Source: a virus (lineage: Duplodnaviria > Heunggongvirae > Uroviricota > Caudoviricetes). From it: a DNA stretch of 40,864 nucleotides. The stretch is from the IMG/VR virus record IMGVR_UViG_2565956716_000008; one strand, written 5' to 3'. Every line of letters begins with the position of its first letter. Positions within the stretch are counted from its first letter, which is position 1. Below, in pieces: positions 5,583-10,680 of the stretch. The position numbers and the translations under genes are program-made. The notes under the pieces were generated by a model that was not told the origin of the DNA, did no database searches, and worked only from the letters and a program-made list of their open reading frames with translations.

Positions 5583-5719
5583 TTTGCTGCTCCTCATCAT
5601 ATCGACCCTGCAAGGTCGGTTGGTTTCTCCACAAAACAGAGAAGAACACCTGCGGTGGCAGCCGCCCGGATGGATTGGGTTATGAGCCCGTCGTCCGGTG
5701 ATGCTCTTCTCTGTTTTGT

Positions 5720-5765
5720 AAAAAGAGCGGTACCAGCCGGAAGCAAGTGTACAAACTGGTACCGC
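5720..5765 (-). terminator. candidate intrinsic terminator in early-left operon leader
   Basis: gcggtaccag / ctggtaccgc 10-bp stem followed on minus strand by tcttttt. Confidence 0.35.
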
Positions 5766-6019
5766 GAGGACTACACACAGCATAAAGTTGTGGTGCCGGG
5801 TGCCTCCCGGTGCCTGGCGAAGGTTGCACACCAGGCGGGTGGGTATCCACAGAAGGTCGACTGTCAGCCTCAACCTTAACCCGCGTGCGCTGAGCCGCAT
5901 TCACCACAACGCTAAGGATTCTCTCTGGTTGAAAATACTTAGCTGTTATGTGCCTGTCTTTTCACCACTTCAGGCTCGGTGGTATCCTTTTAAGCCCGTA
6001 TACATAAAAGGAAAATCAA

Positions 6020-6691: not shown

Positions 6692-7345
6692 TCAAAAATC
6701 CATTATTACTTGTTTGACAAGACCAACTATTCTGCAGTTCTCACCGCATTCAATAGTTTTATAGTTAGGATTTAGTGGGACGAGATACCTGTTCGGCCAG
6801 TCCTCAACAAATTTTTTGAGTGTCGCTTCTTGCCCACCATTGATATGGGCAACAACGATTTTTCCGTTAATACACTCTGTATCAATAATATCTGGCTCTA
6901 CGATAACGATAGAACCTTCTGGTATCGATGGTGAGCCGAGGGGATTGGTCATTGAATCACCACGGACCCGTAGTGCAAATGCCATTTCTGATACAAGGGC
7001 GGTAGTATAAACCCACTCTTCAGCATCTTCTTTCCTGACACCAGGCTCCGTCATTGTCCATGAACCCGCCTGAACCCACGAGATGAGGGGGACTTTTTTA
7101 ACTGCGAATATTTCAGGTTTTAGATTTATCTTTGGTTCAGGCGAGCCTTTTCCGCTAACAAGCCACAGAGGATCGCATTTAAGTGCGTTGGCTAGGGCTT
7201 GAAGGTTGGCTCCATTTGGTTGGTAGTCGTCCTTTTCCCATCCAGTAACCGTGACACGGTTCACACCAGTCAAATCAGCCAGTGCTTGTTGTGTCAGGTT
7301 CAGTTCTTTTCGCCTTTGGCGAATACGATCACTCATGTTCATCAT
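6692..7345 (-). CDS. cI-like repressor (HTH plus S24 LexA-type peptidase domain)
   Basis: N-terminal HTH (LTQQALADLTGVNRVTV), AG cleavage site, GDSM serine and C-terminal lysine; divergent from Cro-like gene. Confidence 0.8.
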   Translation of the reverse strand: MMNMSDRIRQRRKELNLTQQALADLTGVNRVTVTGWEKDDYQPNGANLQALANALKCDPLWLVSGKGSPEPKINLKPEIFAVKKVPLISWVQAGSWTMTEPGVRKEDAEEWVYTTALVSEMAFALRVRGDSMTNPLGSPSIPEGSIVIVEPDIIDTECINGKIVVAHINGGQEATLKKFVEDWPNRYLVPLNPNYKTIECGENCRIVGLVKQVIMDF

Positions 7346-7409
7346 GTAGGCAATCCTACCACATGCCCATGTAGGATTCTTGACATTGGTATGTTGGATA
7401 TCCTACATT
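7344..7409. promoter_or_regulatory. OR-like operators with rightward promoter (PR)
   Basis: three TGTAGG/CCTACA-type palindromes (7344-7361, 7371-7386, 7392-7407); TTGACA 7380-7385, 18-nt spacer, TACATT. Confidence 0.5.
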
Positions 7410-7440: not shown

Positions 7441-7638
7441 ATGTGGAAATCCGACGTGATTAATTATTTCGGCGGAGTTTGTAAAACCGCCGAAGCCCTA
7501 GGTATTAAGCATCCGTCTGTTTCAGAGTGGCCTGAGATTATTCCTGAAGGCCGAGCGTACCAGTTAGAAAAAATTACTAACGGGAAACTGAAAGTTGACG
7601 TGTCTTTATATCAAAAGACTAACAGTGCTGCGGCATAA
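7441..7638 (+). CDS. Cro-like small DNA-binding protein
   Basis: 65 aa, divergent from repressor, GGAG RBS, Cro/YdaS-like sequence character. Confidence 0.55.
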   Translation: MWKSDVINYFGGVCKTAEALGIKHPSVSEWPEIIPEGRAYQLEKITNGKLKVDVSLYQKTNSAAA

Positions 7639-7665: not shown

Positions 7666-8250
7666 GTGGGTAAAGAACCTGAATGGAAAGTTGATAAACA
7701 ACCAGCATGGCTGGTGGCAGCAATACGAAGAACGATTGCTGATTTACCTCATGGCTATGAGGAAGCAGCAGAAATTCTTGGTTTGTATAAATCTGATGAT
7801 ATCACCCCAGCAAAAGATCAATTGCATAACAGACTGCGTAGCGGTGGGGATCAAATTTTTCCACTTGAGTGGGCCATGGTTTTACAGGATGCCAGTGGTA
7901 CCAGGCATGTAACAGATGCAATAGCCCGTCGTAGTAATGGGGTGTTTGTGCCGCTGGTGGTCATTGATGACATTGACAATGGTGACATTAATCAGCGGCT
8001 GATGGAGTCAATAGAATGGATTGGCAAGCATTCCCAGTACTTACGCAAGGCAACTGCTGATGGAGTTATTGACCAAGCTGAGCGTGAGCAAATCGAAGAG
8101 AACAGCTACCAAGTAATGGCGAAGTGGCAGGAGCATTTAACACTGTTATTTCGTGTTTTTTGTGCGCCGGAAAAGAGTAACGCCCGCGAGTGTGCAGCTC
8201 CGGGCGTCGTGGCGTCGATTGCTTCTGGTTGTGGAGAAACTAACGCATGA
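7666..8250 (+). CDS. phage regulatory protein, CII/YdaT-like (tentative)
   Basis: position after cro; weak similarity by eye. Confidence 0.35.
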
Positions 8251-8594: not shown

Positions 8595-9536
8595 ATGAGC
8601 ACTAAATTAACCGGCTATGTATGGGATGGTTGCGCAGCGTCAGGCATGAAATTATCCAGCGTGGCAATTATGGCCCGCCTGGCTGATTTCAGTAATGACG
8701 AAGGTGTGTGCTGGCCATCAATTGAAACCATTGCCCGCCAGATTGGCGCGGGGATGAGTACCGTCAGAACGGCTATCGCACGGCTGGAAGCAGAAGGCTG
8801 GTTAACGCGTAAGGCGCGTCGCCAGGGTAACCGCAATGCGTCGAATGTTTATCAGCTTAACGTTGCGAAGCTTCAGGCAGCGGCATTTTCTCAACTGTCA
8901 GATTCTGACCCGTCAAAATCTGACGCATCAAAATCTGACCCGTCAAAATTTGATGCGTCGAAATCTGGCAAAAAAGCGGGTTTTCACCCGTCAGAATCTG
9001 GCGGGGATCCGTCAGTAAAATCAAAACATGATCCGTCAGATAAAAAACCTTCTCGTCCGGACGCTTCGCAACCGGACACGCAGACGGCTGAACAGGATTT
9101 TTTAACTCGCCATCCTGATGCGGTTGTATTCAGCCCTAAAAAACGCCAGTGGGGGACGCAGGATGATTTGACCTGCGCACAGTGGCTCTGGAAAAAAATC
9201 ATCGCCCTGTACGAGCAGGCTGCCGAATGTGACGGCGAGGTGGTTCGTCCCAAAGAACCGAACTGGACAGCCTGGGCAAACGAAATTCGCCTGATGTGTG
9301 TGCAGGATGGTCGTACTCACAAACAAATCTGCGAGATGTACAGCCGCGTCAGCCGCGATCCGTTCTGGTGCCGTAACGTGCTCAGCCCGTCGAAGCTGCG
9401 GGAAAAATGGGATGAGCTTTCCCTGCGCTTATCGCCGTCCGTCAGCACATACACAGAAAAACGTGAAGATCCGTACTTCAAATCCAGTTACGACAACGTG
9501 GACTACAGCCAGATCCCGGCAGGATTCAGGGGGTGA
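8595..9536 (+). CDS. replication initiator (HTH, O-like) with internal iterons
   Basis: N-terminal winged-helix region; central SDPSKSDASKSDPSKFDASKSG linker encoded by tandem DNA repeats. Confidence 0.6.
   Translation: MSTKLTGYVWDGCAASGMKLSSVAIMARLADFSNDEGVCWPSIETIARQIGAGMSTVRTAIARLEAEGWLTRKARRQGNRNASNVYQLNVAKLQAAAFSQLSDSDPSKSDASKSDPSKFDASKSGKKAGFHPSESGGDPSVKSKHDPSDKKPSRPDASQPDTQTAEQDFLTRHPDAVVFSPKKRQWGTQDDLTCAQWLWKKIIALYEQAAECDGEVVRPKEPNWTAWANEIRLMCVQDGRTHKQICEMYSRVSRDPFWCRNVLSPSKLREKWDELSLRLSPSVSTYTEKREDPYFKSSYDNVDYSQIPAGFRG
8895..9045 (+). repeat. iteron array (candidate replication origin) inside initiator gene
   Basis: 6-8 copies of about 15-bp unit CCGTCAAAATCTGA at 15-bp period followed by A-rich stretch. 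Confidence 0.55.
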
Positions 9537-9538
9537 TC

Positions 9539-10027
9539 ATGAGTCTTTTGAATGAAGTTCAGAAATTCATTGAAGCCCATCCGGGGTGTACTTCCGGAGA
9601 CATTGCGGATGCTTTTGCAGGTTACTCACGGCAGCGCGTTCTGCAGTCAGCAAGCAAGTTACGTCAGAGTGGGCGTGTGGCTCACCGTTGTGAAGGAGAT
9701 ACACGCAGACATTTCTCGCGCCTGACTGAGAGAGCGCAGGAGCCGGAACCACAACCAGTTCGTGAAACCAGACCTGTGCGCAAGTTCTATGTCGGCACTA
9801 ACGACCCCCGGGTGATTTTGTGCCTGACCCGCCAGGCTGAAGAACTGGAGTCGAGGGGCTTATACCGTCGTGCTGCAACGGTGTGGATGGCGGCATTCCG
9901 TGAAAGCCACTCCCAGCCAGAACGAAACAATTTTCTGGCGCGTCGTGAACGGTGTTTACGGAAAAGCAGTAAGCGGGCTGCATCAGGTGAAGAGTGGTAT
10001 CTCTCAGGGAATTACGTGGGGGCTTAA
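9539..10027 (+). CDS. PerC-like transcriptional regulator (tentative)
   Basis: AEELESRGLYRRAATVWMAAF motif resembles PerC family; AGGGGG RBS. Confidence 0.4.
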   Translation: MSLLNEVQKFIEAHPGCTSGDIADAFAGYSRQRVLQSASKLRQSGRVAHRCEGDTRRHFSRLTERAQEPEPQPVRETRPVRKFYVGTNDPRVILCLTRQAEELESRGLYRRAATVWMAAFRESHSQPERNNFLARRERCLRKSSKRAASGEEWYLSGNYVGA

Positions 10028-10680
10028 TGAGTAATAAATATTGCCAGGCGCTGGCGGAACTGCGGAACAAACCAGCCCATGAACTGAAGGAAGTGGGCGA
10101 TCAGTGGCGCACGCCGGACAACATTTTCTGGGGAATTAACACCCTGTTTGGCCCGTTTGTTCTGGATCTGTTCACTGACGGTGATAACGCCAAATGTGCT
10201 GCGTATTACACGGCGGAAGACAACGCGCTGGCGCATGACTGGTCAGAACGCCTTGCGGAGCTTAAAGGTGCTGCCTTTGGTAATCCCCCATACAGCCGCG
10301 CCAGTCAGCATGAGGGGCAATACATCACCGGCATGCGTTACATCATGAAGCATGCCAGTGCCATGCGTGATAAAGGCGGGCGCTATGTTTTCCTGATCAA
10401 AGCTGCCACCAGCGAAGTGTGGTGGCCGGAAGATGCAGATCATATTGCTTTTATTCGCGGGCGTATTGGTTTTGAACTGCCTGCCTGGTTTATCCCGAAG
10501 GATGAGAAGCAGGTGCCGACAGGCGCTTTCTTCGCTGGTGCTATTGCTGTTTTCGACAAGACCTGGAAGGGACCGGCAATCAGCTACATCGGGCGCGATG
10601 AACTTGAGGCATGTGGTGAGGCCTTTCTGGCGCAGGTTCGCCAGCAGGCAGAAAAACTGGTCAGGGAGATGGCGGCATGA
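10027..10680 (+). CDS. phage Dam-like DNA N6-adenine methyltransferase
   Basis: FGNPPYS catalytic motif; start ATG overlaps upstream stop (TAATG); track ORF 5' extension rejected. Confidence 0.65.
   Translation: MSNKYCQALAELRNKPAHELKEVGDQWRTPDNIFWGINTLFGPFVLDLFTDGDNAKCAAYYTAEDNALAHDWSERLAELKGAAFGNPPYSRASQHEGQYITGMRYIMKHASAMRDKGGRYVFLIKAATSEVWWPEDADHIAFIRGRIGFELPAWFIPKDEKQVPTGAFFAGAIAVFDKTWKGPAISYIGRDELEACGEAFLAQVRQQAEKLVREMAA

Follow-up and report, generated by a model that had tools for sequence, protein, structure and literature searches.

The stretch of viral DNA analysed here (IMG/VR record IMGVR_UViG_2565956716_000008; 40,864 nucleotides, referred to throughout as the window) is a lambdoid Escherichia coli prophage with an SfIV/SfV-like genome. 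Its candidate replication initiator, a protein of 313 amino acids, is encoded on the + strand at positions 8595-9536. This gene shares 98.9% DNA identity with the gene for the 'replication protein' gp41 of Shigella phage SfIV, and is 100% identical to one gene of phage vB_EcoM-720R4. A compact array of near-palindromic repeats lies in the middle of the gene. These repeats had been noticed in a first-pass annotation made from the sequence alone, which placed them, with good accuracy, at 8895-9045 and interpreted them as an iteron array that marks the prophage origin.

In RefSeq, the gene product is named 'helix-turn-helix domain-containing protein' or 'GntR family regulator'. Searches of Pfam likewise recover only helix-turn-helix (HTH) families, namely HTH_36 at residues 23-70 (E=4e-11) and related families that all match within residues 23-81. 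No NCBIfam family scores above its cut-off for the protein or for its C-terminal domain. Despite this HTH-only annotation, homology identifies the product as a putative lambda-O-like replication initiator. The protein matches PHROG 391 ('replication initiation O-like') from end to end (E=8e-136), which agrees with the earlier claim that the repeats reside inside an initiator open reading frame (ORF). BLASTP aligns residues 70-277, comprising the linker and the whole C-terminal domain, with lambda O (E=7e-26, 31% identity over 216 columns), and the two proteins share the pattern WG..DLT.A.W ... WAN.IRLM..DGR.H...C ... FW..NVLSP.KLR.KW. The N-terminal domain has no match to Pfam Phage_rep_O and carries HTH_36 instead. 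The AlphaFold2 model consists of a winged helix-turn-helix domain (residues 1-98), a disordered linker (residues 102-160; predicted local distance difference test score <50) and a helical domain (residues 162-280). Foldseek searches of the PDB align the N-terminal domain with generic MarR/ArsR/TFE winged helices (E about 4e-3) and return no match for the C-terminal domain.

The repeat architecture is apparent in the sequence. Tandem Repeats Finder reports a single substantial array in the window (8904-8967; period 15, 4.3 copies, 81% matches), which is also scored as period 30 (88%), and a repeat search detects copies spaced by 15 base pairs (bp) from 8883/8898 to 8972 and one more at 8976-9005. 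The array, in its best register, repeats a near-palindrome of 13 bp, GTCA-N5-TGAC (GTCAAAATCTGAC), and a variable spacer of 2 bp, which gives the period of 15 bp. Five iterons are arranged head to tail at 8897-8969, with starts at 8897, 8912, 8927, 8942 and 8957; in order and with their spacers they read GTCAGATTCTGAC cc, GTCAAAATCTGAC gc, ATCAAAATCTGAC cc, GTCAAAATTTGAT gc and GTCGAAATCTGGC. The sixth, GTCAGAATCTGGC (8990-9002), is dispersed, beginning 33 bp past the start of the fifth copy, and sits within a 19-bp palindrome, CCCGTCAGAATCTGGCGGG (8987-9005). The expectation of at least six tandem copies of about 15 bp therefore holds for the number of copies, but only five of them are strictly tandem. 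All six + strand matches to GTCAAAATCTGAC with at most two mismatches in the 40.8-kb window are confined to 106 bp (8897-9002), so the cluster is far from chance, and no further + strand copies at this threshold, as possible operator-like sites, were found elsewhere in the window. Copies of the left half of the unit, GATCCGTCAG, are present at 9006 and 9030.

The six near-palindromes code for residues 102-136, between the N- and C-terminal domains. As had been noted before, the array encodes a repeated peptide (...SDSDPSKSDASKSDPSKFDASKSG..., residues 102-125), and the one residue of the peptide unit that varies freely (P/A/T) maps onto the 2-bp spacer that separates the palindromes. The stretch from iteron 5 to iteron 6 carries, on the - strand at 8977-8990, a small G+C-rich hairpin followed by a T-run (CGGGTGAAAACCCG CTTTTTTGCC). 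This element is terminator-like by pattern only, and the spacer in which it lies is less conserved than its surroundings. Two overlapping ORFs, at 8836-9018 (+) and 8857-9024 (-), were dismissed as by-products of the repeat.

Directly to the right of the iterons is the least stable 40-mer of the gene (9014-9053, AGTAAAATCAAAACATGATCCGTCAGATAAAAAACCTTCT; 70% A+T, z=2.0 relative to the window, in which 2.8% of 40-mers are less stable). The A-rich stretch that was predicted to follow the repeats is thus present but modest, given that the corresponding 40-mer of lambda O, an AT-rich tract to the right of iteron 4, has 78% A+T and z=3.2. Two direct repeats, GATCCGTCAG(t/a)TAAAA, lie at 9006-9020 and 9030-9044, the second reading GATCCGTCAGATAAAA, and each is headed by a GATC (Dam) site. 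The GATCC pair is spaced by exactly 24 bp in 65 of 78 homologues, and the block is kept in the four loci with variant iterons that were examined; this element therefore does not track initiator specificity. The direct repeats, the low stability and the GATC spacing make 9006-9053 (+) a candidate DNA-unwinding region, and suggest that the A-rich GATC repeats serve as the unwinding element. No match to the DnaA box consensus TTWTNCACA was found in the whole window, and so nothing suggests DnaA-box-dependent initiation.

A gene for a Dam-family N6-adenine methyltransferase (9994-10680, +; Pfam PF05869 Dam, E=1e-45) is located two genes downstream of the initiator. Opening of a GATC-bearing unwinding element might accordingly be sensitive to methylation, and it is possible that the phage enzyme modifies the two origin GATC sites. 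The coexistence of the conserved GATC pair and this methylase hints at control of the origin by methylation or SeqA. We also observed that the Asp codon of the linker in the window is GAT at the D-P sites of the GATC repeats, whereas iteron D-P sites use GAC, and that linker D-P sites overall comprise 151 GAT and 136 GAC codons.

DNA-level constraint across homologues

Homologues were retrieved with the N-terminal 95 residues as the sole query, such that the repeat played no part in finding them. The N-terminal domains of the 76 loci so retrieved show 69-100% identity; the loci come from different species of Enterobacterales, in genera that range from Escherichia to Providencia, Proteus, Erwinia, Yersinia and Rahnella. 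Every intact homologue carries 3 to 10 units of the (SD)xSK type, and the iteron copy number likewise ranges from 3 to 10 among 75 homologues. Codon choice within these units differs sharply from that elsewhere in the same genes (396 units, 75 genes). The first Ser codon is TCA in 79% of cases (14% elsewhere), the second Ser codon is TCT in 74% (8% elsewhere), the Lys codon is AAA in 99% (60% elsewhere) and the Asp codon is GAC in 77% (47% elsewhere). At the sixth iteron, the codons TCA GAA TCT are 97-100% invariant across 70 homologues.

A codon alignment reveals the extent of this constraint. Conserved residues in the region of amino acids 1-97 use three to six codons, whereas those from residue 98 to approximately 161 nearly always use one. 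The fraction of the most common base at third positions is 0.80 for residues 98-161 versus 0.56 for residues 1-97 (Mann-Whitney p=3.6e-12), and it is 0.54 after position 9075. In pairwise comparisons with 16 relatives, most of which have the same C-terminal domain, identical residues are encoded by identical codons in 40% of cases for the N-terminal domain, 79% for the linker and 53% for the C-terminal domain. The linker exceeds both flanks, and so the constrained block is bounded on both sides.

These findings demonstrate purifying selection on the DNA of this segment, with the excess of synonymous-site conservation over flanking coding sequence that is expected of a cis-acting DNA element. 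Because the constrained DNA encodes residues 102-160, which AlphaFold2 predicts to be disordered, protein folding is an unlikely source of the constraint; going by this model, the most conserved DNA encodes the least constrained protein. The results argue for a function of the repeat as DNA rather than as a peptide repeat. Repeat copies that vary freely among homologues without preserving the DNA motif would have spoken against the first-pass interpretation, and the opposite was observed, with the motif kept down to synonymous sites in 75 Enterobacterales homologues.

Recognition helices, iterons and the exchange of modules

For each locus, an iteron consensus was derived by folding the array modulo 15 and rotating it to the best palindrome. 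Nearly all genes with the predicted recognition helix STV(I)RT.. yield [g/a]TCAAAATCTGAC followed by two variable bases, in one and the same reading-frame phase, and a few yield it in another rotation. The window belongs to this group, with the helix STVRTAI and the iteron GTCAAAATCTGAC. Genes with other helices have other iterons: STVKSAIAEL is accompanied by GTCAAaaaTTGAC (locus L167), STVIGLINEL by TCCAGAaaCtGaa (L168), STVITAIGEL by TTCAGATTCTGAA (L079) and NTVSAALNEL by CcCAAATaTTgAC (L170). The changes in these variant iterons fall at mirror positions 1/13 and 2/12, while the 13+2 layout, the period, the register and the reading-frame phase are unchanged. Such co-variation of symmetric half-sites with the helix is what one would predict if a symmetric dimer reads the sites and its specificity has drifted, and it lends indirect support to a model in which the N-terminal domain binds the iterons.

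Comparisons among more distant relatives indicate that the initiator genes are built from exchangeable parts. Citrobacter phage phiNP, Flotzy, YeP1 and most genomic homologues combine the same N-terminal domain and repeats with a Phg_2220_C/DnaD-like replisome-organiser domain at the C-terminus. In a Salmonella relative, a gene with the lambda-O-type C-terminal domain is followed by a Phage_lambda_P gene. Conversely, proteins with unrelated N-terminal domains but a related C-terminal domain or tail have their own palindromic repeats at the same position within the gene; PhiR42_1 carries five CATCGGGTCAAAATGGCCTGATG-type units at a 23-bp pitch, and ST64B sb42 carries four TGGTGCAGGAGATTCACTAGG-type units with a 21-bp period. 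The N-terminal domain and the repeats thus appear to act as one module and the C-terminal domain as another, as in lambdoid O genes. A conserved junction, TCGTCCGGACGCTTCGCAACCGGAC (9051-9077), separates the binding-domain-plus-origin module from the exchangeable C-terminal domain, and a near-identical stretch follows a different N-terminal module and different iterons in phage PhiR42_1 (L008 1514-1540).

Two further observations concern the parts of this gene. The initiator gene is split at approximately residue 79 in E. coli ECDA1023 and ECGI0523 (L059/L083 and L085/L086), and the N-terminal part is more than 1.2 Mb away from the remainder, which includes the origin. The occurrence of such split genes in two complete genomes suggests a chromosomal rearrangement between two prophages at the initiator gene. 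In addition, the last ~24 codons of the gene (9465-9536) encode a tail, ...VDYSxIPxGFR(G/S/T), that is kept with either the lambda-O-type or the unrelated Phg_2220_C domain, occurs also in ST64B sb42 and persists whatever gene comes next. The short tail might serve for docking of a host replication protein. At the DNA level, the last 76 nucleotides of the gene are common to many Stx, cdtI and mEp460 phages.

A candidate lambda-type origin and its alternatives

Taken together, the data make it very probable that the segment from ~8890 to 9075 is the replication origin of this SfIV-like lambdoid prophage, situated where the prophage's own initiator gene codes for the linker. The repeats themselves most likely serve as iterons, the sites at which that initiator binds. 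The earlier reading of the array as a prophage origin is thereby supported, through the preserved DNA motif, the co-variation and the lambda O homology, from which we infer binding, unwinding, helicase recruitment and origin activity.

We propose that, after induction, a pR-type rightward transcript would lead to expression of the initiator, whose N-terminal winged-helix dimers would assemble on the six 13-bp palindromic iterons to form an O-some-like nucleoprotein complex. The 15-bp pitch would place neighbouring dimers ~150 degrees apart around the helix, and hence a tight, spiral array is expected. Strain from this complex would then open the adjacent A-rich, low-stability region with its two GATC-headed repeats, and the lambda-O-type C-terminal domain would recruit the host helicase. 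Helicase recruitment is the weakest step of this proposal. The annotation of a near-identical prophage includes no homologue of P, DnaC, DnaB or primase, and recruitment would therefore have to be direct or proceed via a so far unrecognised partner; the YfdN-like product, which is translationally coupled, is one possibility. Weigel and Seitz reportedly distinguished 'initiator alone' modules among lambdoid phages in 2006, in which case the missing partner represents a variant rather than grounds for exclusion.

Several points weigh against this interpretation. No helicase loader is encoded, so that one step of the lambda mechanism is missing, and the gene beside the initiator belongs to the PerC family (YfdN-like) rather than being a partner loader or helicase gene. 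The A-rich tract, at 70% A+T and z=2.0, is weaker than that of lambda. Within the conserved block, a module junction is the better explanation for positions 9051-9077. Finally, the homologues share ancestry and the repeats arose by duplication, and for this reason codons cannot be counted as independent events, a concern that is reduced but not eliminated by the pairwise contrast with the two flanks.

Alternatively, the array could be an operator or titration site of a winged-helix transcription regulator, used for autoregulation or downstream control, and not an origin. Consistent with this possibility, only HTH families pass Pfam thresholds, the source names for the product are 'GntR family' or 'HTH', and iteron-binding initiators often autoregulate as well. 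However, the C-terminal domain is homologous to lambda O or is swapped for Phg_2220_C/DnaD-like replisome-organiser domains, the gene holds the O position of a lambdoid early-right operon, and lambda P is found next to the gene of a relative. Moreover, no second initiator candidate is annotated in the prophage, and the sites lie mid-gene, 300 bp from the gene start, which is a poor placement for promoter control. We consider an operator to be improbable on these grounds.

Even less probable is that the conservation of the DNA reflects a recombination junction of exchangeable modules, or structure in the mRNA, rather than protein-binding sites. The stretch at 9051-9077 is shared with a phage that has a different N-terminal module, alternative C-terminal domains join just beyond it, and the predicted fold of the + strand RNA (8886-9077) is much stronger than the folds of shuffled sequences (z=-5.5). 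Palindromic repeats would nonetheless be expected to give a strong RNA fold as a by-product, and the long-range pairs of this fold (iteron 1 with 6, and 2-3 with 4) cannot persist when the copy number changes. The tandem array of palindromes and the co-variation with the helix are left unexplained by a junction, which probably accounts for the right-hand 25 bp only. The least probable explanation is that slippage generated a low-complexity peptide linker, (SDxSK)n, with no cis-acting role for the DNA, and that recent duplication or gene conversion has kept its codons uniform. A disordered segment is indeed predicted, and the 3 to 10 copies among homologues, with differences of one or two units between near-identical phages of E. 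coli, do resemble the products of slippage. However, synonymous sites are kept in different genera although synonymous change has saturated their flanking domains, the non-repeated neighbours (PSESGGDPSV..DPS) are equally frozen although slippage cannot homogenise them, the unit is palindromic, its variable residue (P/A/T) coincides with the 2-bp spacer, and the half-sites co-vary with the recognition helix.

The proposed prophage origin resembles ori-lambda in several respects, as the first-pass annotation had suggested. In lambda and the Stx phages, iterons and an AT-rich tract are found in the middle of gene O, and the number of iterons is variable (PMC7466680, PMC3349717); ori-lambda has four iterons, and phages 933W and P27 have six. 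The two systems share the placement of the origin in the linker-coding middle of the initiator gene, an iteron number that varies between relatives (PMC7466680), an iteron formed by an inverted repeat around a TCAAAA/A-tract core and, in only modest form in the prophage, an A-rich tract of low stability on the right. They also have homologous C-terminal domains (E=7e-26), an N-terminal domain that acts as the iteron binder (a prediction for the prophage protein) and a position downstream of cI, cro and a cII or cII-like gene on a pR-type transcript (likewise predicted for the prophage). In contrast to lambda, the N-terminal domain is of the HTH_36 type and not Phage_rep_O, no P gene is present in the prophage, and the weaker A-rich tract (70% vs 78% A+T) is built of two GATC-headed repeats. 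The iterons are 13 bp long at a fixed pitch of 15 bp, compared with 18 bp and pitches of 20, 24 and 23 bp in lambda. This fixed pitch keeps the iterons in frame, hence the repeated peptide, and it would put adjacent dimers on nearly opposite faces of the helix.

BLASTP aligns iteron 6 of the window (CACCCGTCAGAATCTGGCGGG, encoding HPSESGG; 8985-9005) with lambda iteron 4 (TATCCCTCAAAACAGGGGGAC, encoding YPSKQGD; L171 1100-1120). The two have a common frame, CCnTCA.AA...GG.G, and the TCAAAA core also occurs in the PhiR42_1 iterons. The shared frame and core might reflect descent of these origins from a common ancestor.

Origins of the PhiR42_1 and ST64B sb42 types are likewise composed of palindromic linker repeats, with the binding domain and origin as one module and an exchangeable C-terminal domain, but their repeats differ from those of the window in sequence and in period (23 bp and 21 bp versus 15 bp). 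P22 gene 18 and phi80 provide further examples of lambdoid in-gene origins with a different initiator N-terminal domain. In P22-type modules the initiator is paired with a DnaB-type helicase, which this prophage is without. Plasmid iterons are usually 17-22 bp long with a pitch of ~22 bp, lie outside the rep gene and are bound by Rep monomers, with handcuffing controlling copy number. In iteron plasmids such as RK2, pPS10, F and R6K, a winged-helix Rep protein binds direct-repeat iterons beside an A+T-rich unwinding element, and these origins often contain Dam/GATC sites (PMC4980987, PMC4081077). Judging from these comparisons, the prophage element would be a lambdoid origin of known kind, with a binding domain of the HTH_36 type and unusually tight packing of its iterons.

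Prophage setting and distribution

The genes that surround the initiator are those of a lambdoid early region. A cI-type repressor gene (6692-7345, -) is followed by cro (7441-7638), a cII/YmfL-like gene (7666-8250) upstream of the initiator and a small DUF4222 gene between the two. A pR-like promoter, TTGACA-18-TACATT (7380-7409, +), is located upstream of cro, as judged by consensus match only, and a rightward transcript from it would cross the origin. The next gene after the initiator (9533-10027), of the PerC family and YfdN-like, overlaps the initiator stop codon (GTGA) and occupies the position of P in lambda. For the N-terminal 100 residues of its product, the matches are limited to a PHROG of unknown function and a weak hit to a MarR-like HTH, and in relatives the same position is taken by lambda P, DUF1627 or a methylase. 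The methylase gene of the window is followed by genes for a protein with a LexA DNA-binding domain, RusA and a KilA-N protein. In E. coli LR-46, a near-identical prophage adjoins a truncated tRNA-dihydrouridine synthase gene.

This type of origin is widespread. The segment 8700-9080 is present, with at least 80% coverage, in 1580 of 5426 complete E. coli genomes (about 29%), at up to four places per genome, and the module is found also in prophages across Enterobacterales. Database searches return 2370 relatives of the initiator protein at E of 1e-5 or better. No description of iterons for an initiator of the SfIV/SfV/YfdO type was found in the literature that was searched, although an earlier mention by Weigel and Seitz (2006) is possible. 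The SfI genome paper merely lists 'replication' ORFs, and the papers on Eru replication types concern other modules. The principle of an origin within its initiator gene has been textbook knowledge since lambda, which makes the finding well supported but unsurprising. Nevertheless, it concerns a widespread E. coli origin type that is annotated nowhere, in a gene whose product bears just the name 'helix-turn-helix domain-containing protein'. Helix and iteron variants form a natural series that offers a ready-made specificity code for a winged-helix initiator, and a lambda-O-type C-terminal domain that lacks a helicase loader raises the question of how helicase is recruited.

In the cryptic prophage CPS-53/KpLE1 of the E. 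coli K-12 type, the pseudogene yfdO is N-terminally truncated (L175 2502-3209, equivalent to 8828-9536 of the window), and has kept the iteron array and the O-type C-terminal domain but lost the DNA-binding domain. It may thus represent an 'orphan' origin that the initiator of a related phage might fire in trans. Origins shared by co-resident or cryptic prophages could matter for prophage interference and in-situ amplification. A fuller model, in which this is a distinct P-less O-type replicon with methylation-gated opening, the GATC repeats forming an unwinding or SeqA-sensitive element, and in which one induced or incoming phage fires the resident or cryptic copies (up to four per genome, and the orphan) in trans and amplifies the neighbouring chromosome, is speculative and, as a whole, rather unlikely.

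The module was also observed in two circular 'plasmids', NZ_CP081716.1 (37,667 bp; L173) and CP085522.1 (41,492 bp; L174), both of which carry the initiator/origin module and have no plasmid replicon or relaxase typing. These are probably circular phage genomes that were assembled as extrachromosomal replicons, and they hint that the segment may support autonomous replication. Scans with Rfam and for tRNAs yielded no match in the iteron/origin region. Elsewhere in the window, the early-left region of the prophage has an Rfam match to the small RNA STnc100 at 5718-5940 (-), with 49.1 bits against a gathering score of 47.

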